From Escherichia coli (GTDB lineage Bacteria > Pseudomonadota > Gammaproteobacteria > Enterobacterales > Enterobacteriaceae), in NCBI RefSeq assembly GCF_003334315.1, contig NZ_QOWR01000009.1: 64,000 nucleotides of DNA; one strand, given 5' to 3'. A program made the position numbers and the translations under genes. The first letter of the stretch is position 1. Each line of letters opens with the position of its first letter. A model generated the notes under the pieces. That model was not told the DNA's origin. It made no database searches and saw only the letters and a list, made by a program, of their open reading frames with translations. Shown here one piece after another: positions 2,597 to 57,031 of this stretch.

Positions 2597-4630
2597 ATGA
2601 CTCAAGTCGCGAAGAAAATTCTGGTGACGTGCGCACTGCCGTACGCTAACGGCTCAATCCACCTCGGCCATATGCTGGAGCACATCCAGGCTGATGTCTG
2701 GGTCCGTTACCAGCGAATGCGCGGCCACGAGGTCAACTTCATCTGCGCCGACGATGCCCACGGTACACCGATCATGCTGAAAGCTCAGCAGCTTGGTATC
2801 ACCCCGGAGCAGATGATTGGCGAAATGAGTCAGGAGCATCAGACTGATTTCGCAGGCTTTAACATCAGCTATGACAACTATCACTCGACGCACAGCGAAG
2901 AGAACCGCCAGTTGTCAGAACTTATCTACTCTCGCCTGAAAGAGAACGGTTTTATTAAAAACCGCACCATCTCTCAGCTGTACGATCCGGAAAAAGGCAT
3001 GTTCCTGCCGGACCGTTTTGTGAAAGGCACCTGCCCGAAATGTAAATCCCCGGATCAATACGGCGATAACTGCGAAGTCTGCGGCGCGACCTACAGCCCG
3101 ACTGAATTGATCGAGCCGAAATCGGTGGTTTCTGGCGCTACGCCGGTAATGCGTGATTCTGAACACTTCTTCTTTGATCTGCCCTCTTTCAGCGAAATGT
3201 TGCAGGCATGGACCCGCAGCGGTGCGTTGCAGGAGCAGGTGGCAAATAAAATGCAGGAGTGGTTTGAATCCGGCCTGCAACAGTGGGATATCTCCCGCGA
3301 CGCGCCATACTTTGGTTTTGAAATTCCGAACGCGCCGGGCAAATATTTCTACGTCTGGCTGGACGCACCGATTGGCTACATGGGTTCTTTCAAGAATCTG
3401 TGCGACAAGCGCGGCGACAGCGTAAGCTTCGATGAATACTGGAAGAAAGACTCCACCGCCGAACTGTACCACTTCATCGGTAAAGATATCGTTTACTTCC
3501 ACAGCCTGTTCTGGCCTGCCATGCTGGAAGGCAGCAACTTCCGCAAGCCGACCAACCTGTTTGTTCATGGCTATGTGACGGTGAACGGCGCGAAGATGTC
3601 CAAGTCTCGCGGCACCTTTATTAAAGCCAGCACCTGGCTGAATCATTTTGACGCTGACAGCCTGCGTTACTACTACACTGCGAAACTCTCTTCGCGCATT
3701 GATGATATCGATCTCAACCTGGAGGATTTCGTTCAGCGCGTGAATGCCGATATCGTTAACAAAGTGGTTAACCTGGCCTCCCGTAACGCGGGCTTTATCA
3801 ACAAACGTTTTGACGGCGTGCTGGCAAACGAACTGGCTGACCCGCAGTTGTACAAAACCTTCACTGATGCCGCTGAAGTGATTGGTGAAGCGTGGGAAAG
3901 CCGTGAATTTGGTAAAGCTGTGCGCGAAATCATGGCGCTGGCTGATCTGGCTAACCGCTATGTCGATGAACAGGCTCCGTGGGTAGTCGCAAAACAGGAA
4001 GGTCGCGATGCTGACCTGCAGGCGATTTGCTCAATGGGCATCAACCTGTTCCGCGTGCTGATGACTTACCTGAAGCCGGTACTGCCGAAACTGACCGAGC
4101 GTGCAGAAGCCTTCCTCAATACGGAACTGACCTGGGATGGTATCCAGCAACCGCTGCTGGGCCACAAAGTGAATCCGTTCAAGGCGCTGTATAACCGCAT
4201 CGATATGAAACAGGTTGAAGCTCTGGTGGAAGCCTCTAAAGAAGAAGTGAAAGCAGCTGCCGCGCCAGTTACTGGCCCACTGGCAGATGATCCGATTCAG
4301 GAAACCATCACCTTTGACGACTTCGCCAAAGTTGACCTGCGCGTAGCGCTGATCGAAAACGCAGAGTTTGTTGAAGGTTCTGACAAACTGCTGCGCCTGA
4401 CACTGGATCTCGGCGGTGAAAAACGCAATGTCTTCTCCGGTATTCGTTCTGCCTACCCGGATCCGCAGGCACTGATTGGTCGTCACACCATTATGGTGGC
4501 TAACCTGGCACCACGTAAAATGCGCTTTGGAATCTCCGAAGGCATGGTGATGGCTGCCGGTCCAGGCGGGAAAGATATCTTCCTGCTAAGCCCGGATGCT
4601 GGTGCTAAACCGGGTCATCAGGTGAAATAA
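2597..4630 (+). CDS. metG: Methionyl-tRNA synthetase (677 aa)
   Basis: ORF 2588..4630 trimmed to [29 protein letters not shown] (HIGH-type motif HLGH), KMSKS motif present (AKMSKSRG). Confidence 0.97.
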
Positions 4631-4639
4631 TCCCCCTTC

Positions 4640-4670
4640 AAGGCGCTGCATCGACAGCGCCTTTTCTTTA
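4640..4670 (+). terminator. Intrinsic terminator after metG
   Basis: Hairpin aaggcgctg-catcga-cagcgcctt at 4640-4663 followed by ttttcttt. Confidence 0.65.
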
Positions 4671-4770
4671 TAAATTCCTAAAGTTGTTTTCTTGCGATTT
4701 TGTCTCTCTCTAACCCGCATAAATACTGGTAGCATCTGCATTCAACTGGATAAAATTACAGGGATGCAGA

Positions 4771-7700
4771 ATGAGACACTTTATCTATCAGGACGAAAAA
4801 TCACATAAATTCTGGGCGGTGGAGCAACAGGGAAACGAGTTGCATATCAGTTGGGGAAAAGTTGGCACCAAAGGGCAAAGTCAGATAAAAAGTTTTTCAG
4901 ATGCTGCGGCAGCGGAAAAAGCGGAACTTAAGCTGATTGCGGAGAAGGTGAAGAAGGGGTATGTGGAGCAAGCGAAGGATAATTCTTTGCAACCTTCCCA
5001 AACGGTAACGGGCTCTCTCAAGGTAGCGGACTTATCCACCATTATTCAGGAACAACCCTCTTTCGTAGCAGAAACCCGTGCGCCTGACAAAAATACAGAT
5101 GCTGTTTTACCGTGGCTGGCGAAAGATATTGCTGTCGTTTTTCCGCCCGAAGTTGTACACACCACGTTAAGTCATCGCCGCTTTCCCGGAGTTCCTGTTC
5201 AGCAAGCAGACAAATTGACCCAATTACGTCGCTTAGCCTGTAGTGTGTCGCAACGGGATAATAAAACAGCCACATTTGACTTCAGCGCCTGTTCTTTAGA
5301 ATGGCAAAACACCGTCGCCCAGGCGATCAGTCAGATCGACGGCCTGAAAACAACACAGTTACCATCACCAGTAATGGCTGTACTCACGGCACTTGAAATG
5401 AAATGCACAAGATATAAAGTGCGTGAGGATGTTATGGATCAGATCGTCCAGGAAGGCGGTCTGGAATATGCTACTGATGTAATAATACACCTTCAACAGA
5501 TTGATATTGAATGGGATTATGCGAATAATGTCATTATTATTCTGCCGTCTGGCATTGCACCTAGCTACTTGGAGCAATATTCCAGATTTGAATTACGCCT
5601 ACGTAAACATTTATCACTGACGGAAGAGTCTCTCTGGCAAAAATGTGCACAAAAACTTATTGCCGCAATTCCACATATTCCAGAATGGCGGCAACCATTA
5701 ATTGCTTTGTTATTACCCGAAAAACCAGAAATTGCACATGAAATTGCCCAGCGTCTACTGGGGCAAAAAAAATTACCCTCGCTTGAGTGGTTAAAAATAG
5801 TGGCGACTGATGAGCACATTCTTGCCTCATTAGAAAAATATCACGAACCATATGCCATTTTTGATGATTACTATTGTGGTGCGATATGGTCAGCCACCGT
5901 ATTACAGGAGCAAGGTGTTGCAGCCCTGCCCCGATTTGCTCCCTATGCCGCAAGTGACTACTGCGCCGATGTGTTGCGTCATATCAATCATCCGTTCGCA
6001 TTGACACTGCTTATACGTGTAGCCGGGCAAACTAAACGCTGTCACGATCGGATGACGAAAGCCATTGCTGCGTTCCCACATGCAGCAATGGCGGCACTGA
6101 CGGAACTTCTTGGGCAAAAAGAAGAGAACAGTTGGCGCATTATGCTAATGACAATGCTTATCTCACAACCAGCACTGGCAGAACAGGTCATTCCCTGGCT
6201 CTCGACACCCGCAGTTGCCGTACTGAAATCATGCCAGCAACAACTGACACAGCCCTCAAACCATGCCAGCGCCGATCTACTGCCAGCCGTAGTAGTCTCC
6301 CCTCCCTGGCTTTCGAAAAAGAAAAAATCGCCGATTCCGGTGCTGGATTTAGCGCCATTAGGCATTGAGCCAATCTGTTATCTGACAGAAGAAATCAGTA
6401 ATCAACTTTTGGCGAAATATATCTGGTATTCAAAACACATCACGGTTAGCCATGAAGAAAGTACTACCAACCTGTTGGCAAGGATGGGTTTTCAACGACG
6501 GATCGCTGGTACATATATTAAAGCTCCCGAAGCGGTAGTTGAGGCATGGCTAAATGAAGATTATTCAACCTTACTAAGTGAATTTAAGGTGTTTCATTCA
6601 CCTACCGGGCATTATTGGCAGTTGGGGATTTTGACAACATTGCCGCTGGAGAAAGCAGTAAAAGCATGGAATGCCCTTACCCTATCTCCACATACCGATA
6701 CCGAATACTCCATGTTACATTTTGGACTCAAAGGGTTACCTGGGTTAGTAAACTCACTTGCACGCTATCCACAAGAAGCCTTGCCCATCACGAATTACTT
6801 CGCAGCGAGTGAGCTGGCTCCTGCCGTCGCCCGTGCCTTCAACAAACTGAAAACGCTACGCGAAAACGCCCGTAGCTGGCTGTTGAAATACCCGGAACAT
6901 GCCCTTACCGGCCTGCTGCCTGCGGCGCTCGGCAAAGCCGGTGAAGCACAGGATAACGCCCGCGCTGCCTTGCGTATGCTTACCGAAAACGGTCATCAGC
7001 CATTACTGCAAGAAATCGCCCGACGTTATAACCAGCCGGAAGTAACCGATGCGGTGAACGCTCTGCTTGCGCTCGATCCCTTAGATAATCACCCGACAAA
7101 AATCCCCACTCTTCCGGCCTTTTATCAGCCATCGCTCTGGACGCGCCCGGTATTAAAAGCAAATGCCCAATCACTGCCAGATAGCGCCCTCCTCCACCTC
7201 GGTGAAATGCTCCGCTTCCCTCAGGAAGAGGCTCTGTATCCGGGATTATTGCAGGTGAAAGACGTCTGTTCCGCCGACTCACTGGCGGGATTTGCCTGGG
7301 ATCTGTTTACCGCCTGGCAGACCGCTGGCGCGCCGTCGAAAGAGAGTTGGGCGTTCACTGCGTTAGGCGTTCTCGGTAACGATGACACCGCCCGCAAACT
7401 GACGCCATTAATACGCGCCTGGCCTGGTGAATCCCAGCATAAACGCGCCACCGTTGGGTTGGATATTCTCGCTGCTATCGGTAGTGATATCGCCCTTATG
7501 CAGCTTAACGGCATCGCCCAGAAACTGAAATTCAAAGCATTACAGGAGCGGGCAAAAGAAAAAATTGCCGACATTGCCGAGAGCCGCGAACTCACGGTGG
7601 CGGAGCTTGAAGATCGGTTAGCACCGGATCTCGGTCTGGATGATAACGGTTCGCTGCTGCTGGATTTTGGCCCACGGCAGTTCACCGTCAGCTTTGATGA

Positions 7701-8565
7701 AACCTTAAAACCGTTTGTGCGTGATGTTTCCGGCAGCCGCCTGAAGGACCTGCCCAAACCGAACAAAAGCGATGATGAAACGCGGGCGAACGATGCGGTT
7801 AACCGCTACAAATTGCTGAAAAAAGATGCGCGTACCATCGCCGCCCAGCAGGTAGCAAGGCTGGAATCCGCCATGTGCCTGCGCCGCCGCTGGTCGCTGG
7901 AAAACTTCCAGCTCTTCCTGGTTGAGCATCCGCTGGTTCGTCACTTAACCCGCCGTCTGATTTGGGGCGTTTATAGCGCCGAAAACCAGCTACTGGCTTG
8001 CTTTCGCGTAGCAGAAGATAACAGCTCCAGCACCGCTGACGATGATCTTTTCACCCTGCCGGAAGGCGATATCTCTATCGGCACTCCTCACGTTCTGGAA
8101 ATATCACCAACGGATGCTGCCGCCTTTGGTCAGCTTTTTGCCGACTACGAACTGCTACCACCGTTCCGCCAGCTCGACCGTAACAGCTACGCCCTGACAG
8201 AAGCCGAGCGCAATGCCAGTGAACTGACCCGCTGGGCAGGCAGAAAATGCCCGAGTGGTCGGGTCATGGGGCTGGCGAATAAAGGCTGGATAAAGGGCGA
8301 ACCACAGGATGGAGGCTGGATCGGATGGATGATCAAACCTTTGGGTCGCTGGTCGTTAATCATGGAAATCGATGAAGGCTTTGCGGTAGGCATGTCGCCA
8401 GCCGAACTCAGCGCTGAGCAGCTCTTAAGCAAGCTGTGGCTATGGGAAGGCAAAGCAGAAAGATATGGCTGGGGGAGTAATTCAACACAGGAAGCGCAGT
8501 TCTCCGTAATCGATGCCATCACCGCCAGCGAGCTAATTAACGATATTGAAGCCCTGTTTGAATAA
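4771..8565 (+). CDS. yehH: Large MolR-like protein with N-terminal WGR domain (1264 aa), intact
   Basis: Single uninterrupted ORF; N-terminus MRHFIYQDEKSHKFWAVEQQGNELHISWGKVGTKGQ shows the W-G-K/R signature of WGR domains; remainder paralogous to downstream YehI. Confidence 0.85.
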   Translation: MRHFIYQDEKSHKFWAVEQQGNELHISWGKVGTKGQSQIKSFSDAAAAEKAELKLIAEKVKKGYVEQAKDNSLQPSQTVTGSLKVADLSTIIQEQPSFVAETRAPDKNTDAVLPWLAKDIAVVFPPEVVHTTLSHRRFPGVPVQQADKLTQLRRLACSVSQRDNKTATFDFSACSLEWQNTVAQAISQIDGLKTTQLPSPVMAVLTALEMKCTRYKVREDVMDQIVQEGGLEYATDVIIHLQQIDIEWDYANNVIIILPSGIAPSYLEQYSRFELRLRKHLSLTEESLWQKCAQKLIAAIPHIPEWRQPLIALLLPEKPEIAHEIAQRLLGQKKLPSLEWLKIVATDEHILASLEKYHEPYAIFDDYYCGAIWSATVLQEQGVAALPRFAPYAASDYCADVLRHINHPFALTLLIRVAGQTKRCHDRMTKAIAAFPHAAMAALTELLGQKEENSWRIMLMTMLISQPALAEQVIPWLSTPAVAVLKSCQQQLTQPSNHASADLLPAVVVSPPWLSKKKKSPIPVLDLAPLGIEPICYLTEEISNQLLAKYIWYSKHITVSHEESTTNLLARMGFQRRIAGTYIKAPEAVVEAWLNEDYSTLLSEFKVFHSPTGHYWQLGILTTLPLEKAVKAWNALTLSPHTDTEYSMLHFGLKGLPGLVNSLARYPQEALPITNYFAASELAPAVARAFNKLKTLRENARSWLLKYPEHALTGLLPAALGKAGEAQDNARAALRMLTENGHQPLLQEIARRYNQPEVTDAVNALLALDPLDNHPTKIPTLPAFYQPSLWTRPVLKANAQSLPDSALLHLGEMLRFPQEEALYPGLLQVKDVCSADSLAGFAWDLFTAWQTAGAPSKESWAFTALGVLGNDDTARKLTPLIRAWPGESQHKRATVGLDILAAIGSDIALMQLNGIAQKLKFKALQERAKEKIADIAESRELTVAELEDRLAPDLGLDDNGSLLLDFGPRQFTVSFDETLKPFVRDVSGSRLKDLPKPNKSDDETRANDAVNRYKLLKKDARTIAAQQVARLESAMCLRRRWSLENFQLFLVEHPLVRHLTRRLIWGVYSAENQLLACFRVAEDNSSSTADDDLFTLPEGDISIGTPHVLEISPTDAAAFGQLFADYELLPPFRQLDRNSYALTEAERNASELTRWAGRKCPSGRVMGLANKGWIKGEPQDGGWIGWMIKPLGRWSLIMEIDEGFAVGMSPAELSAEQLLSKLWLWEGKAERYGWGSNSTQEAQFSVIDAITASELINDIEALFE

Positions 8566-12891: not shown

Positions 12892-13979
12892 ATGTCACCG
12901 CAGAATAATCATCTGCAGCGTCCGCCTGCTGCTGTGTTATACGCCGATGAACTGGCAAAATTAAAACAAAATGATAACGCACCTTGCCCGCCCGGTTGGC
13001 AGTTAAGTTTGCCTGCGGCCCGTGCTTTTATCCTTGGCGACGAAGCGCAAAATATCAGCCGTAAAGTGGTGATTAGCCCCTCCGCTGTCGAACGTATGTT
13101 AGTCACTCTTGCTACCGGCCGCGGTTTGATGTTGGTGGGGGAACCGGGTACCGCAAAATCTCTTCTTTCTGAATTACTGGCAACCGCTATTAGCGGCGAT
13201 GCCGGGTTAACCATCCAGGGCGGGGCATCTACCACCGAAGATCAAATCAAGTATGGCTGGAACTACGCCCTGCTTATCAATCATGGTCCGTCAACGGAAG
13301 CGCTGGTCCCTGCCCCGCTTTATCAGGGAATGCGCGACGGCAAAATCGTCCGTTTCGAAGAGATAACGCGTACACCGCTGGAAGTGCAGGACTGTCTGTT
13401 AGGTATGCTTTCTGACAGGGTGATGACGGTGCCGGAACTCACTGGTGAAGCCAGTCAGCTCTATGCGCGAGAAGGCTTTAATATTATTGCCACTGCCAAT
13501 ACCCGCGATCGCGGCGTCAATGAAATGAGTGCTGCGCTAAAGCGTCGCTTCGATTTTGAAACGGTTTTTCCGATTATGGATTTCGCCCAGGAGTTGGAAC
13601 TGGTCGCCAGTGCTTCGGCGCGTTTGCTGGCCCATAGCGGTATTCCGCATAAAGTGCCTGACGCGGTACTGGAATTACTGGTCCGCACCTTCCGCGATCT
13701 GCGTGCCAACGGCGAAAAGAAAACGTCAATGGATACACTGACAGCGATTATGTCCACCGCTGAAGCCGTGAACGTGCCCATGCTGTGGGCGTCCGCGCCT
13801 GGTTTTTAGCGAATCGCGCGGGGGAGCCTGCCGACCTGGTGGAATGTATTGCCGGAACCATCGTCAAAGATAACGAAGAAGATCGCGCGCGTCTGCGCCG
13901 TTACTTCGAACAGCGTGTCGCCACACATAAAGAAGCTCACTGGCAGGCTTATTATCAAGCCCGCCACCGCCTGCCGTGA
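12892..13979 (+). pseudogene. yehL: MoxR-type AAA+ ATPase YehL, disrupted by apparent 1-nt deletion (frame A ends at TAG 13807-13809; remainder continues in -1 frame to 13979)
   Basis: ORF 12826..13809 trimmed to MSPQNNH at 12892; Walker A LVGEPGTAKS (~13138-13161). The -1 frame is open from 13764 to TGA 13977-13979; joined length equals 362 codons, matching my recollection of K-12 YehL. T5 run at 13803-13807 is the likely indel site. Confidence 0.6.
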
Positions 13980-13989
13980 GGAAAGATGC

Positions 13990-16269
13990 ATGAGCGAGCC
14001 GTTAATTGTCGGCATCCGGCATCATAGTCCGGCCTGCGCCCGGCTGGTGAAATCGTTAATCGAAAGCCAGCGGCCACGATACGTGTTGATTGAAGGCCCG
14101 GCTGATTTTAATGACCGGGTAGACGAACTGTTTTTAGCCCACCAGCTTCCGGTAGCTATTTACAGTTATTGCCAGTATCAGGACGGTGCAGCCCCCGGGC
14201 GTGGTGCCTGGACGCCATTTGCTGAATTTTCGCCGGAGTGGCAGGCGCTACAAGCCGCACGTCGCATTCAGGCACAAACTTACTTCATCGATTTGCCTTG
14301 CTGGGCGCAGAGTGAAGAAGAGGACGATTCGCCTGATACGCAAGATGAAAGCCAGGCCTTACTGCTGCGTGCCACCCGCATGGATAACAGCGATACCCTG
14401 TGGGATCACTTGTTCGAAGATGAAAGCCAGCAAACTGCATTACCCTCTGCGCTGGCGCACTATTTTGCCCAACTGCGGGGCGACGCCTCCGGCGATGCGC
14501 TCAATCGTCAGCGCGAAGCCTTTATGGCCCGCTGGATTGGATGGGCGATGCAGCAAAATAATGGCGACGTGTTAGTTGTCTGCGGTGGCTGGCACGCTCC
14601 GGCACTGGCAAAGATGTGGCGCGAATGCCCTCAGAAAATTAACAAGCCAGAATTGCCCTCGCTGGCAGATGCCGTTACAGGTTGTTATCTCACACCCTAC
14701 AGTGAAAAGCGCCTTGATGTGCTGGCAGGATACCTTTCAGGAATGCCTGCCCCGGTATGGCAAAACTGGTGCTGGCAGTGGGGCTTGCAGAAGGCCGGTG
14801 AACAACTGCTAAAAACTATCCTTACCCGTTTGCGCCAGCACAAATTGCCCGCTTCTACCGCGGATATGGCTGCCGCTCATCTGCATGCGATGGCGCTGGC
14901 ACAGTTGCGCGGTCATACACTACCGTTACGCACTGACTGGCTGGATGCCATAGCAGGCTCGCTGATTAAAGAAGCCCTGAACGCGCCGTTGCCGTGGAGC
15001 TATCGCGGCGTTATTCATCCCGATACCGATCCGATTCTGCTAACGTTGATAGACACATTAGCGGGTGACGGATTCGGTAAACTTGCCCCTTCTACGCCAC
15101 AACCGCCTCTGCCAAAAGATGTCACCTGCGAACTGGAACGTACCGCAATCTCCCTTCCGGCGGAGCTTACCTTAAATCGCTTTACCCCCGATGGGCTGGC
15201 GCAAAGTCAGGTGTTACATCGGCTGGCAATACTGGAGATCCCTGGGATTGTACGCCAGCAGGGAAGTACACTGACACTTGCAGGCAACGGTGAAGAACGC
15301 TGGAAATTAACCCGCCCGCTTAGCCAGCATGCGGCATTGATTGAGGCCGCCTGTTTTGGTGCCACACTCTAGGAAGCCGCACGCAATAAATTAGAAGCCG
15401 ATATGCTGGACGCGGGCGGAATCGGCAGTATCACCACATGTCTTAGCCAGGAGGCGTTAGCGGGTCTGGCGTCCTTCAGTCAACAATTACTGGAGCAACT
15501 CACACTATTAATCGCCCAGGAAAATCAATTTGCCGAAATGGGCCAGGCGCTGGAAGTGCTTTATGCCTTATGGCGGCTGGATGAAATTAGCGGTATGCAA
15601 GGCGCGCAGATATTACAAACGACGTTATGCGCGACTATCGATCGCACGCTGTGGCTGTGTGAATCTAACGGCAGACCGGATGAAAAGGAGTTTCACGCTC
15701 ACCTGCATAGCTGGCAAGCGCTTTGCCATATTCTGCGCGATCTACATAGCGGCGTTAATTTACCCGGCGTTTCTCTTTCTGCGGCGGTAGCCTTACTGGA
15801 GCGACGCAGTCAGGCAATTCATGCCCCGGCGCTGGATCGCGGCGCGGCTCTTGGCGCACTAATGCGTCTGGAACATCCCAACGCCAGTGCCGAAGCGGCG
15901 CTGACGATGCTGGCGCAGTTATCCCCGGCACAATCTGGTGAGGCGCTGCACGGTTTGCTGGCGCTGGCCCGCCATCAACTGGCCTGTCAGCCGGCATTTA
16001 TCGCCGGTTTCAGCAGTCATTTAAATCAACTGAGTGAAGCCGATTTTATTAACGCCCTGCCCGATTTACGCGCGGCGATGGCCTGGCTACCACCACGAGA
16101 ACGCGGGACGCTGGCGCATCAGGTGCTTGAGCATTATCAACTGGCGCAACTTCCCGTTTCGGCGCTGCAAATGCCGTTGCATTGTCCACCACAGGCCATT
16201 GCACATCATCAACAACTCGAACAGCAGGCACTGGCATCGCTGCAAAACTGGGGAGTTTTCCATGTCTGA
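13990..16269 (+). pseudogene. yehM: Large uncharacterised protein YehM with in-frame amber codon (TAG 15370-15372); two ORF halves 13990..15372 and 15373..16269 in the same frame
   Basis: ORFs 13849..15372 and 15403..16269 are in the same reading frame separated only by TAG; read-through length 759 codons equals my recollection of K-12 YehM. Start at MSEPLIVGIRHHSP (13990). Confidence 0.6.
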
Positions 16270-17398
16270 ACTGAACGATCTTCTGACCACCCGTGAGCTA
16301 CAACGCTGGCGATTAATTCTTGGCGAAGCGGCAGAAACGACGCTTTGTGGGCTGGATGACAACGCCCGGCAGATAGACCACGCGCTGGAGTGGCTGTATG
16401 GGCGCGATCCTGAACGGCTCCAGCGTGGTGAACGTTCCGGTGGATTAGGTGGCTCAAATCTCACCACCCCTGAGTGGATCAACAGTATTCACACGCTGTT
16501 TCCGCAGCAGGTGATTGAGCGGCTGGAAAGCGATGCCGTGCTGCGCTACGGCATTGAAGATGTGGTGACGAATCTCGACGTGCTGGAACGTATGCAGCCT
16601 TCTGAAAGCCTGCTACGCGCTGTTTTGCACACCAAACATCTGATGAACCCCGAAGTACTGGCTGCCGCCCGCCGGATAGTGTGCCAGGTTGTTGAAGAAA
16701 TTATGGCTCGACTGGCAAAGGAAGTTCGTCAGGCTTTTTCTGGTGTCCGCGATCGCCGTCGCCGTTCATTTATTCCACTGGCGCGAAACTTTGATTTCAA
16801 AAGTACTCTGCGCGCCAACCTGCAACACTGGCACCCGCAACACGGCAAGTTGTATATCGAATCCCCCCGCTTTAACAGCCGCATTAAACGCCAAAGCGAA
16901 CAATGGCAACTGGTCTTACTGGTTGATCAAAGCGGATCGATGGTCGATTCGGTGATCCACTCTGCGGTGATGGCGGCCTGTTTGTGGCAGTTACCCGGCA
17001 TTCGTACCCATCTGGTGGCGTTTGACACAAGCGTCGTTGATCTCACGGCAGACGTTGCCGATCCGGTAGAGTTATTAATGAAAGTACAGTTGGGCGGCGG
17101 GACCAATATCGCCAGTGCCGTGGAGTATGGTCGGCAACTTATTGAACAACCAGCGAAAAGCGTCATTATCCTCGTGAGCGATTTTTACGAAGGGGGTTCA
17201 TCATCATTACTGACGCATCAGGTGAAAAAGTGTGTCCAGAGCGGCATCAAAGTGCTGGGACTGGCAGCGCTCGATAGCACCGCAACACCTTGCTATGACC
17301 GCGATACGGCCCAGGCGCTGGTTAATGTCGGCGCACAAATAGCCGCCATGACGCCGGGCGAGCTGGCATCATGGCTTGCGGAGAATCTTCAGTCATGA
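16262..17398 (+). CDS. yehP: von Willebrand factor A (vWA) domain protein YehP (378 aa)
   Basis: ORF trimmed to MSELNDLLTTRELQRW at 16262 (ATG 8 nt upstream of the yehM stop); MIDAS-like motif DQSGS (~16925-16939). Confidence 0.88.
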   Translation: MSELNDLLTTRELQRWRLILGEAAETTLCGLDDNARQIDHALEWLYGRDPERLQRGERSGGLGGSNLTTPEWINSIHTLFPQQVIERLESDAVLRYGIEDVVTNLDVLERMQPSESLLRAVLHTKHLMNPEVLAAARRIVCQVVEEIMARLAKEVRQAFSGVRDRRRRSFIPLARNFDFKSTLRANLQHWHPQHGKLYIESPRFNSRIKRQSEQWQLVLLVDQSGSMVDSVIHSAVMAACLWQLPGIRTHLVAFDTSVVDLTADVADPVELLMKVQLGGGTNIASAVEYGRQLIEQPAKSVIILVSDFYEGGSSSLLTHQVKKCVQSGIKVLGLAALDSTATPCYDRDTAQALVNVGAQIAAMTPGELASWLAENLQS

Positions 17399-19395
17399 AT
17401 TCACTACGTCCGGAATTATTAGAACTGACACCGCAGGCCCTGACGGCGTTAAGCAATGCCGGTTTTGTTAAGCGCAGTCTTAAGGAACTGGAAAATGGCA
17501 ACGTCCCGGAGATCAGCCATGAGAACGACGCTTTAATCGCCACCTTCAGTGACGGTGTCCGTACCCAGCTGGCGAACGGCCAGGCACTGAAAGAGGCTCA
17601 GTGCAGTTGCGGGGCCAACGGTATGTGCCGTCATCGCGTGATGCTGGTGTTAAGTTATCAACGACTTTGTGCCACCACTCAGTCTACGGAAAAAGAAGAA
17701 GAGTGGGATCCGGCAATCTGGCTGGAAGAACTGGCTACCCTTCCCGATGCTACCCGCAAACGCGCACAGGCGCTGGTCGCTAAAGGCATCACCATTGAGT
17801 TGTTCTGTGCGCCGGGTGAAATTCCCTCTGCCCGCTTACCGATGAGCGATGTGCGTTTTTATTCCCGCAGCAGTATTCGTTTCGCCCGTTGTGATTGTAT
17901 TGAAGGCACACTTTGCGAACATGTCGTACTGGCGGTACAGGCCTTCGTCGAGGCCAAAGCGCAGCAAGCAGAATTTAACCATTTAATCTGGCAGATGCGC
18001 AGCGAACACGTCACATCATCTGACGATCCGTTTGCCAGCGAAGAAGGCAACGCGTGTCGTCAATATGTTCAGCAATTAAGCCAGACATTATGGCTTGGCG
18101 GCATCAGCCAGCCGCTCATCCATTACGAGGCAGCATTCAACCGCGCATTGCAGGCGGCAGAGACCTGCAACTGGCGCTGGGTGAGTGAATCGCTACGGCA
18201 ACTGCGCGCCAGCGTTGATGCCTTCCACGCCCGCGCCAGCCACTATAATGCCGGAGAATGCTTACATCAGCTTGCGGCATTAAACAGTCGATTAAATTGC
18301 GCACAAGAGATGGCCCGGCGCGACAGTATTGGTGAAGTTCCTCCTGTGCCGTGGCGCACGGTCGTTGGCTCTGGCATTGCCGGAGAAGCAAAGCTTGATC
18401 ATCTGCGGCTGGTGTCTTTAGGTATGCGTTGCTGGCAGGATATTGAGCATTATGGTTTACGCATCTGGTTTACCGATCCCGACACCGGCAGTATTTTGCA
18501 CCTTTCGCGCAGTTGGCCGCGAAGTGAACAGGAAAACTCACCGGCAGCTACGCGTCGGCTGTTTAGTTTTCAGGCTGGCGCACTGGCGGGCGGGCAAATT
18601 GTTTCACAAGCAGCAAAACGCAGTGCCGATGGCGAGCTGCTGTTAGCTACCCGCAACCGCTTAAGCAGCGTTGTGCCGCTGTCGCCTGATGCCTGGCAAA
18701 TGTTGAGCGCGCCGTTACGCCAGCCGGGCATTGTGGCTTTGCGGGAATATTTACGCCAGCGTCCCCCCGCCTGCATACGGCCTCTTAATCAGGTCGATAA
18801 CTTATTTATTCTGCCGGTCGCTGAGTGTATTTCGCTCGGTTGGGACAGCAGCCGCCAGACGCTGGATGCGCAGGTCATTAGCGGCGAAGGGGAAGATAAT
18901 GTGCTGACGTTATCATTACCAGCCTCAGCCAGCGCACCTTATGCCGTTGAACGCATGGCGGTGCTTTTGCAACAAACAGACGACCCCGTGTGTCTGGTTT
19001 CTGGCTTTGTCAGTTTTGTTGAAGGGCAATTGACACTGGAACCACGGGTGATGATGACAAAAACCCGTGCCTGGGCGCTGGACGCAGAAACTACGCCTGT
19101 GGCACCGCTACCTTCTGCCAGCGTTTTGCCTGTGCCGTCTACTGCTCATCAGTTGCTGATACGCTGCCAGGCGTTACTTATTCAACTGCTCCATAACGGC
19201 TGGCGCTATCAGGAACAGAGTGCTATTGGTCAGGCAGAGTTGCTGGCGAATGACCTCACCGCGGTGGGTTTTTATCGGCTGGCACATGTGTTGGGACAAT
19301 TTCGTAATACAGAAAGCGAGGCACGGGTAGAAGCAATGAATAACGGTGTTTTGCTTTGCGAACAATTATTCCCCATGCTTCAGCAACAAGGATGA
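17395..19395 (+). CDS. yehQ: SWIM zinc-finger protein YehQ
   Basis: ORF trimmed to MNSLRPELLEL at 17395 (ATGA overlap with yehP stop); two CxCx5CxH motifs: CSCGANGMCRH and CDCIEGTLCEH. Confidence 0.85.
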   Translation: MNSLRPELLELTPQALTALSNAGFVKRSLKELENGNVPEISHENDALIATFSDGVRTQLANGQALKEAQCSCGANGMCRHRVMLVLSYQRLCATTQSTEKEEEWDPAIWLEELATLPDATRKRAQALVAKGITIELFCAPGEIPSARLPMSDVRFYSRSSIRFARCDCIEGTLCEHVVLAVQAFVEAKAQQAEFNHLIWQMRSEHVTSSDDPFASEEGNACRQYVQQLSQTLWLGGISQPLIHYEAAFNRALQAAETCNWRWVSESLRQLRASVDAFHARASHYNAGECLHQLAALNSRLNCAQEMARRDSIGEVPPVPWRTVVGSGIAGEAKLDHLRLVSLGMRCWQDIEHYGLRIWFTDPDTGSILHLSRSWPRSEQENSPAATRRLFSFQAGALAGGQIVSQAAKRSADGELLLATRNRLSSVVPLSPDAWQMLSAPLRQPGIVALREYLRQRPPACIRPLNQVDNLFILPVAECISLGWDSSRQTLDAQVISGEGEDNVLTLSLPASASAPYAVERMAVLLQQTDDPVCLVSGFVSFVEGQLTLEPRVMMTKTRAWALDAETTPVAPLPSASVLPVPSTAHQLLIRCQALLIQLLHNGWRYQEQSAIGQAELLANDLTAVGFYRLAHVLGQFRNTESEARVEAMNNGVLLCEQLFPMLQQQG

Positions 19396-35617: not shown

Positions 35618-37054
35618 TCAGCGTTTGTAACCCCCGCCCAACGCACCAGTGAGTTGAATGGAGGCATCCAGCCACTGCCCTTGCAATAACAGGCCATTGG
35701 CCCGCTCACGCAGCGCGGGGATTCTGGCTTCGCTGACGCGGGAACCAGCAATGATGCCCGCGTTAAAGCGCGCCTGCGCAAGACCTACCACACGCAAGGC
35801 ATCGCGCTCAATTTGCGCCTGATGCTGGTTTTTCTCCGCCAGTGTCTGAACCTGACTGGCTGCCCGCGCCACGTCATTCACCGCTTCAACCACCGCTTTG
35901 TTGTAGCTGGCGATAGACAAGTTGCTTTCGGCTTTTGCGATATCGAGATTGGCGTTAAGACGACCACTATCGAAAATGGGTAGCGTCAGGCCTGCCGTAA
36001 CGCCCATTTGCTGCGCGGAATGACGGAACAGATCGCTTAAGTGCAACGCATCCTGTTGCAGGAAGGCCATCAGGTTGATGTCAGGATAAAATGCCGCTTT
36101 TGCCGCATCAATGGTGCTTAGCGATGACTCAACGTACCAGTGCGCCGCCTGCAAATCTGCCCGCCGGGCCAGTAAGGAGTACCCCAGTTCATCAGGAAGC
36201 TGGCTTGCCACTTTCGGCAACGCGACCGGTTTAAGCTTCAATGACTTTGTCTGGTTATTTGTAAGTGCGCTTAACCGTGCCTCAATAATTTTCATTTTCC
36301 CCGCGACATCGTTGAGCTGCTGCCGGGTTTTGCTGGCATTAATATCGGTTTCCACACCTTCAACTGAAGAAGTAATCCCGTTCTGATATAGCTGGCGATC
36401 GGTCGCGATAATGGTGTTCTGCTCTTTTTCTATTTGCTGCAAGACCGTGTTTAACGCCGCCTGGGTTTGCCACTCCCAGTACAGGCGGGCTACGCTGCCA
36501 GCCAGCAATTGGCGGGTTTGCTCGCGTTCCGCCGCCCGTGCTTTAACCGTACCCAGGCGGGCAGTAACCTCCGCCCGATTCTTTCCCCAGATATCGAGAT
36601 GCCAGCCCGCCGTTAAGCCAAAAGTACCGTTGGTGTACCACGGGCCGGTCGTACCTGCGGCCGGATCGTTCAGAGCAAACGGCCCCATTAAGCCTTCTGC
36701 CGACATTTTTTGCCGCTCCATATCCGCCGAAAAGTCGATCTGCGGACCATCCTGAGTGGCAACTGCCTTCGCCTGGGCTTCAGCTAGCTGAATGCGCTGT
36801 TCAGCCACCTGCATATCCGGTGCGTTCTGTAGTGCATTGTTAATTAAGGAAGTGAGTTGATTATCGTGATACTCCAGCCACCATTGGCTGTCTGGCCAAC
36901 CATTTTTCAGCGCCGTGGGTAATGCGGTGTCAACTTGTGCAGCGGGCGTTTGCTGGCTTAACGCCTGGCGGGTTTCATGCATAGGCGCACACCCGGCCAG
37001 CATCAGTAACAGCGGAAAACAGGCGATGGCTGGATAAAAGGAATCACGATTCAT
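35618..37054 (-). CDS. mdtQ: Outer-membrane efflux lipoprotein MdtQ (478 aa), intact
   Basis: ORF trimmed to MNRDSFYPAIACFPLLLMLAGCAP (lipobox). Confidence 0.8.
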   Translation of the reverse strand: MNRDSFYPAIACFPLLLMLAGCAPMHETRQALSQQTPAAQVDTALPTALKNGWPDSQWWLEYHDNQLTSLINNALQNAPDMQVAEQRIQLAEAQAKAVATQDGPQIDFSADMERQKMSAEGLMGPFALNDPAAGTTGPWYTNGTFGLTAGWHLDIWGKNRAEVTARLGTVKARAAEREQTRQLLAGSVARLYWEWQTQAALNTVLQQIEKEQNTIIATDRQLYQNGITSSVEGVETDINASKTRQQLNDVAGKMKIIEARLSALTNNQTKSLKLKPVALPKVASQLPDELGYSLLARRADLQAAHWYVESSLSTIDAAKAAFYPDINLMAFLQQDALHLSDLFRHSAQQMGVTAGLTLPIFDSGRLNANLDIAKAESNLSIASYNKAVVEAVNDVARAASQVQTLAEKNQHQAQIERDALRVVGLAQARFNAGIIAGSRVSEARIPALRERANGLLLQGQWLDASIQLTGALGGGYKR

Positions 37055-37277
37055 GGGGGAATAATCAGGTAAGAAAAGGTGCGCGGAGATTACCGTGTGT
37101 TGCGATATATTTTTTAGTTTCGCGTGGCAATACATCAGTGGCAATAAAACGACATATCCAGAAAAATATACACTAAGTGAATGATATCTTCCGATTTATC
37201 TTAATCGTTTATGGATAACGGCAAAGGGCTTCGTTTTTTCCTATACTTATTCAGCACTCACAAATAAAGGAACGCCA

Positions 37278-53073: not shown

Positions 53074-55065
53074 TCAGAAGCGATAATCCACTGCCATAAA
53101 GTAACGACGTCCGTCTTCGTTATAGCTGTAGTCGTCACGACTGAGATCCTTGTCGCCAAGGTTCAGCACGCCTGCGCGCAGTTTGACGTCTTTAGTCACC
53201 TGCCAGGCCGCGCCGGTATTCCAGATGGTATAACCGCCCGGTGTTTTAGCCGTCGCGCTGTCGGCGCGTTTCTGCCCGGTATAGTGCCCAGAAACATAGA
53301 ATGACCAGTCTTCCAGCGCCAGCGGTTTCCAGTCCAGCGTACCGTTAGCAGTATGGAACGGCAGATCGGATAGCGGTTTGTTTTCGCCGTTGCTGACATC
53401 ACGACCATCGTTGTAGGTGTAGTTGATCGACAGTTTCCATTCATCGTTGAACGGAATTTTCAGTTCGGTTTCCACGCCCTGAATACGAGCTTTGTTAACG
53501 TTGTAGTAGCTAAATACCGGTATGCGCCGTCCGTTAGCGCCCGTCTCAAAACCAACAAAGTTTTGGTAGCCCGGTGCAGCGTTGACGTCAGACGTACGGC
53601 TGATGCTGATACGATCTTTCACATCGTTACGGAAAACGGTAACGCTGGATTCAACCCCTTCCAGCCAGCCTTCTTCACCCATGTAGTAAAGCCCCAGCTC
53701 CCAACTTTCGCTGGTTTCTGGTTTCAGATCCGGGCTACCCACAATCTTACATGCGCCACGGCAGGAATTGCTCGTCCAGTCAGGGCTAAGTTGCAACAGA
53801 GAAGGTGCTTTAAATGCCGTCGCCCAGCCCCCTTTCACCGTTACGGTGTCGGTGGCGTTATAAACCAGGTAGGCACGCGGACTCCAGTGTTCACCGTAGG
53901 TTTCATGATCGTCCATACGTACGCCGGTCGTCAGCGCCAGCGGCTCGAAGATCCGCCATTCATCTTCCACAAACAGCGCGTACTGGCTGGCAGACGTTTT
54001 GGAGCTGGTTCCCCCGGTCAGGTTCACCGCATCGCTAAGTTTGTCGTGACGCCATTCACCGCCAACCGTGAGAAACTGATTAATCGCCGTCAGCGGCAAC
54101 GTGTATTTGCCGTCGACCGTATTGCTTTCGGAAGTTATCGGGCTGCTGTTGCCAGGGTTTTTGTTCTCGACTTTCTCACCGTAGTATTTCAGTTCGCTGG
54201 TGCCGTAATCCCAACGCCCATTATGGCTGACGGAGTAGTTCTGGCGTTCCAGGCGGTTTTTGTCCAGCGAGTCGGAATCACGATCCTGACGGTCGAAACC
54301 GTATCCGGCAGTAAAATCGTGATTTTGATTCGGTGTCCAGGCAAATTCGACATTGCCGTCGCGGCTGGAGAATCCTTCAATACGCGGCGTTTCTCCGGTA
54401 TCGGTGGTCGTTGAGTTTTGCGGGTCATCCTTTTCACGTTTTGCCAGGCTGCCGTAAGCTTTCATTCCCAGCACGCCGTCAATTAATGGTCCGCTGGTAA
54501 AGAACTGACCGTTATAGGTATCACCGCGATCGCGATGTTCCTGAACGGTGGTATCGACGGTAACGGTGCCCGACCATTTCTGACCGATTTTTTTGGTGAT
54601 GATATTCACTACACCGCCGAGCGCATCGGAACCGTACAGCGACGACATCGGGCCACGGACCACTTCAATACGTTCGATGGAATCGACCGGGATCCAGTTC
54701 AGATCGAAATCATTGTGGCGGAAGACGGCATTGCGGGAGTTAACGCGTTTACCGTCGACAAGAATCAGGGTGTAGCTGCTGTCCAGACCACGAATACTAA
54801 CGCCCTTACGGTTATCCCCTTCGTTCGTCAGTTGTACGCCAGGCACTTCTTTGAGGACATCCTTCAGATTCTGTACCGGTTTTCGCTGCAGGTCTTCCTG
54901 GGTAATGACGCTGATACTGGCGGGTGCATCTTTAAGGTTTTGTTCAACGGAAGATGCAGTGACAACCATCGTTTCGCCATCATCATCGACCGCTAACACA
55001 GGCCATGCACAAGAAATAGCGGACAAACACAGCCCGACCCGTACGAAAGGGTTCAACCTAAACAT
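53074..55065 (-). CDS. cirA: TonB-dependent catecholate siderophore/colicin I receptor CirA (663 aa)
   Basis: Signal peptide, TonB box region, C-terminal ...YRF. Confidence 0.95.
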
Positions 55066-55234
55066 TCCATATCTCCATGAGGTAACTACGAAAATAAAAT
55101 GGGTTATCGCTCACATCTTCTTCACGTCCCCTTGCGTACGGCAGCATCGCGGTGGACTTATTTGTATGCAGGTGATCATCCCAGAAAGCCGGACCAGCCT
55201 CTGATTTGTCAGCCTTTTTTGATTGCGGCGTAAC

Positions 55235-55259
55235 GATAATGCAAACGATAACAATTATC
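55235..55259. promoter_or_regulatory. Fur-box-like sequence upstream of cirA
   Basis: gataatgcaaacgataacaattatc resembles the GATAAT-rich Fur consensus. Confidence 0.4.
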
Positions 55260-55311
55260 AATCCAAATGTTAAATTTTATATCCGCATGATTTGTCAGGG
55301 AAATGGAATTG

Positions 55312-55336
55312 AAAAAGCCCTCTCGGTTGAGAGGGC
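55312..55336 (-). terminator. Intrinsic terminator after lysP
   Basis: Hairpin gccctctc-ggtt-gagagggc (55317-55336) with T-run on minus strand (aaaaa 55312-55316 on +). Confidence 0.65.
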
Positions 55337-55357
55337 TTAGCAAGGAAGGGAGGAAAC

Positions 55358-56827
55358 TTATTTCTTATCGTTCTGCGGGAACTTCATTTCGCTGTAGCGT
55401 ACGAAGTGAGTTCCTTTAATCAGCTTGTAGCCGAACCAAATAATCAGGAACAGCGGGATACCAATATACGTTGCCGCTACGCCGCCCCAGTCAATAGTAT
55501 CTTTCAGGAACGCTTCGTAGTTCTGGCCCAAAGTGATAATCAGACACAGAATGAATGCGAAGATCGGCCCCAATGGGAAGAAACCTGAACGGTACGGCAG
55601 ATCGTTAATGTCGTGTCCCTGCAATACGTAACCGCGACGGAAGCGATAGTGGCTAATGGCAATCCCCAGCCAGGCGATAAAACCCGTCATCCCGGAGGTA
55701 TTCAGCAGCCACAGGTATACCGTCTGGTTGCCAAACATGGAGGTCAGGAAGCACAGACCGGCAATCACCGTCGTCGCATACAGCGCATTACGCGGCACGC
55801 CACCACGCGACAGTTTAGCGAAAATGCGCGGCGCTTTACCGTCACACGCCAGGGTGTACAGCATACGAGTAGACGCATACATACCGGAGTTACCGGCTGA
55901 CAGCACCGCCGTCAGAATAACTGCGTTCATCACCGCCGCCGCAGAGAGCAGACCCGCGTGCTGGAACACCAGGGTGAACGGACTAACGCTGATGTCTTTA
56001 ACATCGTTACGCAGCAGGCTCGGATCGGTGTACGGAATAATGAGGCTGATAATCAGGATCGCGAACACATAGAACAACAGGATTCGCCAGAACACCTGAC
56101 GTACCGCGCGTGGAATGTTTTTCGCCGGATCTTCGGACTCGCCTGCAGCAATACCGATCAGCTCGGTTCCCTGGAAAGAGAAGCCGACAATCATAGCTAC
56201 GCCGATCATCGCCGCAAAACCACCAGCAAACGGCGCTTCGCCGATTGTCCAGTTGCTCCAGCCCGCAGGCTGCGCGCCTTTGAAGATACCGATAATCATC
56301 AGCACGCCAACGATGATAAAGACAATAACTGTCGTGACTTTGATCAGTGAGAACCAGTATTCCGCTTCACCAAAGCCACGAACTGAGATGTAGTTCAGCA
56401 GGAAGATAACGCCGAGGAACAACGCACTCCAGATCCAGCCCGGTGTATCCGGGAACCACCAGCTCATGACCAGCTGAGCTGCAACCAGGTCAACGGCGAT
56501 AGTCACCGCCCAGTTGTACCAGTAGTTCCAGCCCAGCGCGAAGCCAAAGCCTTCTTCAACATAGTTCTGACCGTAAGTGGCAAACGAACCGGAAACCGGC
56601 ATATATGCAGCCAGTTCACCGAGACTGGTCATCAGGAAGTAAACCATCAGGCCAATCAACATATACGAGAGCAATGCCCCGCCCGGACCTGCCTGAGAAA
56701 TCGTTGCGCCAGAGGCAACAAAAAGACCTGTACCGATGGAACCGCCAATGGCAATCATCGTCAGGTGACGCGCCTTTAATTCACGGCGTAAGCCCGGCGC
56801 TTCTGTGGTTTTAGTTTCGGAAACCAT
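55358..56827 (-). CDS. lysP: Lysine-specific permease LysP (489 aa)
   Basis: APC-family amino acid permease. Confidence 0.95.
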   Translation of the reverse strand: MVSETKTTEAPGLRRELKARHLTMIAIGGSIGTGLFVASGATISQAGPGGALLSYMLIGLMVYFLMTSLGELAAYMPVSGSFATYGQNYVEEGFGFALGWNYWYNWAVTIAVDLVAAQLVMSWWFPDTPGWIWSALFLGVIFLLNYISVRGFGEAEYWFSLIKVTTVIVFIIVGVLMIIGIFKGAQPAGWSNWTIGEAPFAGGFAAMIGVAMIVGFSFQGTELIGIAAGESEDPAKNIPRAVRQVFWRILLFYVFAILIISLIIPYTDPSLLRNDVKDISVSPFTLVFQHAGLLSAAAVMNAVILTAVLSAGNSGMYASTRMLYTLACDGKAPRIFAKLSRGGVPRNALYATTVIAGLCFLTSMFGNQTVYLWLLNTSGMTGFIAWLGIAISHYRFRRGYVLQGHDINDLPYRSGFFPLGPIFAFILCLIITLGQNYEAFLKDTIDWGGVAATYIGIPLFLIIWFGYKLIKGTHFVRYSEMKFPQNDKK

Positions 56828-57031
56828 ACAAAAATGCTATCCATCTAAAAAATGAGGCGCGATTGTAGCAGACGATTGGCAATCCTTCCGGCAGAAATAC
56901 ACGGTTATAAGACACCTTCATGATCGCCCAGGGATTATAAGTAAAGCAGCCAATCTCTTTTCTGGCGAATGCATGCTGAAGGCGCTGCGTCACGAAATCG
57001 ACACAGCACCAGCATGTTCTTGTACAGCAAC

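Follow-up and report, generated by a model that had tools for sequence, protein, structure and literature searches.

A probable loss-of-function frameshift in yehL, through loss of one G at codon 295/296, in an Escherichia coli lineage carrying a yehM nonsense mutation

Here, we report that the MoxR-family gene yehL of an Escherichia coli strain has a lone G in place of the GG pair at the boundary of codons 295 and 296, so that its reading frame closes after 305 instead of 362 amino acids. The gene lies in a stretch of 64,000 nucleotides of contig NZ_QOWR01000009.1, which we call the window and whose positions are used throughout. The deletion is very probably a genuine loss-of-function frameshift, private to one strain or clone, in an operon that had already been disabled. 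The features of the disrupted gene are the following:

12892-13809, plus strand: truncated yehL, 305 aa and not 362, made of native residues 1-295, 10 out-of-frame residues and TAG (ORF list, translation)
13776-13777, plus strand: deletion junction, with one G left of the GG of intact alleles (GTGGCCC to GTGCCC), at the codon 295/296 boundary
13777-13806, plus strand: ten out-of-frame codons, PMLWASAPGF in place of native AHAVGVRAWF (translations)
13803-13807, plus strand: T5 run, the same in intact alleles; T4 only in alleles of other strains (L012-L015)
13807-13809, plus strand: premature TAG, out of frame in the intact gene (frame/stop map)
13810-13979, plus strand: stranded 3' end of yehL, native codons 306-362 one base back, with codon 306 at 13806-13808 and the stop TGA at 13977-13979

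Translation of yehL starts at the ATG at 12892 and its frame closes at the TAG at 13807-13809 after ...AEAVNVPMLWASAPGF. The frame one base back contains a TGA at 13761-13763, is open from 13764 to the TGA at 13977-13979 and encodes ...AHAVGVRAWFLANRAG...HRLP; translated over 13764-13979, it gives residues 296-362 of K-12 YehL. The first-pass annotation of this DNA had described both frames, with the stop following MLWASAPGF and the distal TGA 10 nt ahead of the yehM ATG at 13990, and the ORF list, the translation and the frame map bear this description out. It had also joined the two frames to 362 codons, the length it gave for K-12 YehL; the K-12 protein indeed has 362 residues, and 305 + 57 = 362.

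The alignment to K-12 yehL that had been suggested at that stage revealed the expected one-base loss, but at 13776. Over 13700-13990, the sole difference between the window and both K-12 MG1655 and strain 720632 is one missing G, in a GTGGCCC motif whose GG pair occupies 2205480/81 in K-12. The second G is present in BUCT2930 and in all four sister assemblies. Viewed by codon, the lost base is either the third of codon 295 or the first of codon 296. A single missing base accounts for the break, as had been proposed: one G restored in silico yields a protein with 0 amino-acid differences from BUCT2930 YehL, and intact yehL measures 1089 nt or 362 aa in K-12, strain 720632 and BUCT2930. Since the lesion emerges from direct comparison with reference sequences and not from a statistical pattern, chance is not at issue. 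The site originally favoured for the deletion, the T5 run at 13803-13807, has to be given up, however, as it reads TTTTT in the window, in K-12 and in 720632 alike, and the base lost is a G of the GG pair 27 nt upstream. The idea was a reasonable one, because other strains, with a different haplotype, have indeed gone from T5 to T4 in this run.

Native residues 296-362 (67 aa) are gone from the window product, and translation from the yehL start no longer reaches the stranded C-terminal codons. We considered separate expression of this fragment from the in-frame GTG at 13785, which is unlikely since no Shine-Dalgarno-like sequence was found ahead of that codon.

How widespread is the deletion? 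A deletion-specific 49-mer centred on the junction occurred in 0 of 5,426 complete RefSeq E. coli genomes, and the matching GG 50-mer, used as a control, in 4,980 of the 5,426. None of these genomes thus offered an identical reference allele with a normal 305-aa protein, an eventuality that the first-pass annotation had kept in view. A large protein collection of about 15 billion sequences lists the exact 305-aa product from two Logan contigs. A 64-aa downstream ORF (P0001) was considered as a further sighting of the allele and rejected, as both of its contigs are artefacts: one begins with a Nextera adapter at the yehL site, and in the other this place is taken up by the N's of a scaffold gap. 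In contig L018 (Logan SRR32115418_64065), positions 1-19 are the Nextera transposase adapter AGATGTGTATAAGAGACAG, and the spurious 64-aa gene call resulted from it.

The genes that follow yehL stand in the same order in K-12 and in the window, yehI-yehK-yehL-yehM-yehP-yehQ, and the first of them carries a lesion of its own:

13990-15372, plus strand: 5' part of yehM, ending at Q461* (CAG to TAG, 15370-15372), 460 aa and not 759 (codon comparison with K-12)
15373-16269, plus strand: untranslated remainder of yehM, with a leftover 288-aa ORF at 15403-16269 (ORF list)
16262-17398, plus strand: yehP, VWA protein, frame intact (ORF list, Pfam VWA_CoxE/VWA_2)
17395-19395, plus strand: yehQ, SWIM protein, frame intact (ORF list, Pfam SWIM)

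The gene calls for yehM on Logan and NCBI contigs are likewise 460 + 288 aa, and the BUCT2930 annotation of yehP and yehQ agrees with the window, shifted by one base. The nonsense mutation, on which the first-pass description of the yehL break is silent, provides the context for that break. It is found well beyond this strain: Q461* is also present in L007-L011, and the 460-aa product was returned from 44 assembly-index blocks, from which 24 contigs were read. The junction of the Q461* allele was matched by none of the complete RefSeq genomes. BUCT2930, the nearest complete genome found, shows 13 differences from the window in 25 kb and carries an intact yehL (362 aa) as well as an intact yehM (759 aa).

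Which of the two mutations came first can be read from the carriers of Q461*. Four that were read (SRR30285751, GCA_025412885.1, GCA_015675075.1 and ERR972103) combine the yehM nonsense mutation with the GG pair and a 362-aa YehL. As these relatives are still intact in yehL, the disrupted gene is the derived state; and because they keep GG, the yehM mutation predates the yehL deletion. The nonsense mutation thus marks the lineage, and the deletion is a later event in one strain or clone. Where the operon is intact, yehL ends at a stop that overlaps a GAGGAAAG element, 10 nt ahead of the yehM start. With the stop about 180 nt early, translational coupling to yehM should be abolished.

YehL gives its name to one of seven MoxR subfamilies, and its function is not known (PMC3893208). 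The only Pfam domain found on the full-length protein is AAA_5 at residues 79-220 (E = 1.9e-33), and the Walker A motif GEPGTAKS is kept in the 305-aa product. The closest solved relatives of YehL are the AAA cores of midasin, McrB and 2r44, which align over the core only. NCBIfam returned only sub-threshold matches to GvpN and MadB ATPase for YehL, and nothing for YehM, YehP and YehQ. Used as a ruler only, since the score is far below the family cut-off, the GvpN model aligns YehL 68-293 to its positions 13-237 of 262, which suggests that the cut takes away some 25 positions at the end of the canonical AAA+ module, together with a YehL-specific tail. In comparisons of divergent E. coli haplotypes, synonymous changes in the last 67 codons outnumber non-synonymous ones by 10 to 1 and by 5 to 1, and from this synonymous excess we take the tail to be under purifying selection in intact lineages. 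The 305-aa YehL, with its ATPase core retained, is thus likely non-functional. Measured against the traits of the subfamily, as defined in PMC3893208, the window gene has the AAA+ core, of the dynein-related AAA_5 type, and a VWA partner gene nearby (yehP, VWA_CoxE/VWA_2, two genes downstream), but lacks a complete C-terminal region. A single-sequence AlphaFold model of full-length YehL was set aside as unusable (mean pLDDT 36.6, pTM 0.22). At residue 180 (window 13430), Val is found in the window and in all alleles read, except for Gly in K-12 and the K-12-like P0039, so that here K-12 looks like the unusual sequence.

Is a 305-aa YehL peculiar to this deletion? The protein cluster holds several further 305-aa variants, and at least four different one-base losses fall within a zone of about 45 nt. 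The DNA of the P0038 group (L012-L015) has a true T5 to T4 loss, that of P0033 (L016 and L017) has lost one G in going from GGG to GG, and for P0035 the protein sequence implies the loss of a T. According to the frame/stop map, any one-base loss within 13764-13806 leads to the TAG at 13807-13809. The alleles are therefore equal in length by virtue of one out-of-frame TAG common to all, and an equal length of YehL does not give the identity of the mutation. Their different positions and different haplotypes point to independent events, and a broken yehM accompanies yehL on several of these contigs.

On the 5.3-Mb contig L016 (GCA_016586535.1), yehL-yehM is broken at 401-1718 into fragments of 305, 46, 77 and 646 aa, and the yehL tail remains out of frame after repair of one deletion. 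A real GGG to GG loss, which the short-read run SRR1685365 shows as well, may here be overlaid by long-read indel noise.

At large, the window shares 99.76% identity with MG1655 2191704-2255253. Over these 63.5 kb it differs by 148 substitutions and 5 single-base indels, which rules out that it is K-12 or an old version of the K-12 sequence. Of the four indels besides that in yehL, two lie in yehH and mdtQ, both of them pseudogenes in K-12 and intact in the window, and two in intergenic DNA, so that the window does not look indel-noisy. The first of these genes, yehH (WGR + DUF4132, 1264 aa, 4771-8565, plus strand), is intact in the window, and its K-12 pseudogene has an extra G at the place matching window 7616. 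The second, mdtQ (35618-37144, minus strand), has an open frame with one T more than the K-12 pseudogene at 36903. YehQ has 666 aa in the window and in BUCT2930 and 614 aa in K-12, which has TAG where the window has GAG at 19237; the K-12 YehQ is thus itself shortened by a nonsense mutation. The substitutions relative to K-12 are strongly clustered at 2944-4926 (metG-yehF) and 53905-61011 (cirA to yeiI), with near identity elsewhere, a pattern typical of recombination tracts. Colinearity with K-12 stops in the rihB-yeiL intergenic region, and the last ~450 bases of the window (63548-64000) match IS1, which has tens of copies in many genomes and lies beside rihB in only 14 complete genomes.

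Could the strain in truth carry GG and an intact yehL, with a G dropped in base-calling, assembly or polishing? The rarity of the allele, in 0 of 5,426 complete RefSeq genomes and in two contigs only, would fit an error as well as a private mutation, and single-base indels are the usual error of long-read assemblies, of which the breaks in GCA_016586535.1 look like an example. However, the Logan assembly of run SRR3824135, which is k-mer-based, is 100% identical to window 2892-23809 (20,918 bases), deletion included, a confirmation that is not fully independent insofar as this run may be the same strain and possibly the read set of the window's own genome. As a short-read assembly thus reproduces the deletion, an artefact of the assembler or of polishing is unlikely. 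Furthermore, the site is a GG pair and not a long homopolymer, the four remaining indels against K-12 lie in K-12 pseudogenes or intergenic DNA, and no scattered indel noise is seen in the window genes. The neighbouring yehM lesion is moreover a base substitution common to many assemblies, which argues for a genuine decay of the yehL-yehM operon that is under way. Taken together, we consider a sequencing or assembly error quite improbable. Still less credible, to the point of being very improbable indeed, is that the ribosome bridges the two frames by -1 slippage on U UUU UAG, with tRNA-Phe on UUU 13804-13806 and the TAG in the A site, to yield a YehL of 362 aa in which nine residues (296-304) are substituted. 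The T5 run abuts the stop, a back-slip of one base would re-pair perfectly with UUU and resume the native frame from Leu306, and P-site slippage beside stop codons is generally known to occur at low levels. Against this stands that the two-frame layout is confined to this strain or clone: its junction occurs in none of the 5,426 complete genomes, and in sister assemblies and reference genomes the gene reads through in a single frame. Scanned in the mutant zero frame, the overlap zone (13761-13809) contains no X XXY YYZ heptamer, only T GGT TTT TAG; the 93 nt at 13808-13900 fold no better than shuffled sequences (-29.1 kcal/mol; mean of the shuffles -30.8; z = +0.54); and the 20 nt upstream contain no GGAGG-like, that is Shine-Dalgarno-like, stimulator. 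If slippage did occur, it would be an accident, probably of no more than percent frequency, in front of a next operon gene that is already truncated. Programmed frameshifting, which the first-pass annotation had mentioned as its least likely option, is not supported by these sequence features, and the window yehL works as a broken gene, not as a recoding site.

Another way to read the truncation is that it is tolerated or selected, either since the 305-aa YehL still functions or since inactivation of yehL and yehM is advantageous. The AAA+ core and its motifs are kept, the same 45-nt zone shows its at least four one-base losses on different haplotypes, several of them with a broken yehM, and other disruptions are known as well: IS1 lies inside yehL in one complete E. 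coli genome, 207 of the 5,426 have no yehL match, and Shigella sonnei lineages 2 and 3 have both yehL and yehM deleted (PMC12795559). Yet a few independent frameshifts in a non-essential gene among ~15 billion sequences meet the neutral expectation, the uniform 305 aa arises only from the one common out-of-frame TAG, and in intact lineages purifying selection acts on the lost tail, an argument that the tail matters for function. We therefore regard a tolerated or selected truncation as unlikely. A bolder form of the idea would see in the repeated inactivation of yehL and yehM a selection against a costly, H-NS-silenced MoxR-VWA-SWIM module, perhaps of a conflict or defence type; the independent events that can be cited for it are the one-base losses (at least four), the yehM nonsense mutation and frameshifts, the IS1 insertion and the S. 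sonnei deletion. We hold this to be somewhat less probable again. Both genes are up-regulated in hns/stpA mutants (PMC3686432), which implies that they are silenced in wild-type K-12. A PADLOC scan of YehH, YehI, YehK, YehL, YehM, YehP and YehQ gave no matches, so that the PADLOC library lends no support to a known defence system in the yehH-yehQ cluster, and in the literature the term 'yehLMPQ' was found in no paper, nor did any paper cite the run or assembly accessions of the Q461* lineage.

The reading that we prefer, a genuine and private loss-of-function frameshift, also corresponds to the pseudogenising mutation that was among the three options of the first-pass annotation, and it is the one favoured by the evidence. 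A G of the GG pair at codon 295/296 was lost in a lineage in which yehM Q461* was already present. The ribosome would then read 10 codons out of frame and halt at a TAG lying outside the native frame, and the product would keep the AAA+ core (GEPGTAKS, AAA_5 79-220) minus the last 67 residues. The most likely cause would be relaxed selection on a disabled operon, which H-NS silences in K-12 and which wild strains can do without, and the deletion would have been fixed neutrally.

For the annotation of this genome, yehL should be recorded as a pseudogene disrupted by a frameshift, and the lesion placed at 13776 instead of the T run; yehM should be recorded as a gene with an internal stop. The locus offers a clean example of stepwise operon decay, in which a nonsense mutation in a lineage is followed by a frameshift of the neighbouring gene in one clone, and it shows that natural isolates can dispense with the yehLMPQ module. 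Beyond correct annotation, the finding matters little.

Indeed, the yehL frameshift is ordinary gene decay of a well-known kind, as a comparison with related cases illustrates. K-12 yehL (b2119, NP_416623.2), the founder of the YehL subfamily of MoxR AAA+ ATPases, is the same gene at the same locus; it matches the window over nucleotides 13700-13990 but for the one G, and residues 1-295 are identical except for G180V, whereas the K-12 protein has 362 aa and that of the window 305 aa, without native residues 296-362. The other 305-aa alleles resemble the window in their one-base loss, the same ~45-nt zone and the same TAG end, but differ in position and haplotype, and only the P0038 group represents a T-run loss. 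Programmed -1 frameshift sites such as dnaX (A AAA AAG) and IS1 (A AAA AAC) share with the window yehL the overlapping frames and a homopolymer that closes the upstream frame; unlike them, the window has no conserved layout, no tandem slippery heptamer, no stimulatory structure and no Shine-Dalgarno-like element upstream. Further parallels are provided by K-12 itself, where yehH (b4499), mdtQ (b2139) and the shortened yehQ show how a single-base indel or a nonsense mutation disables an accessory gene in one lineage and leaves it intact in relatives. In these three genes the lesion is on the K-12 side and the window strain has the intact copy, while for yehL and yehM the roles are reversed.
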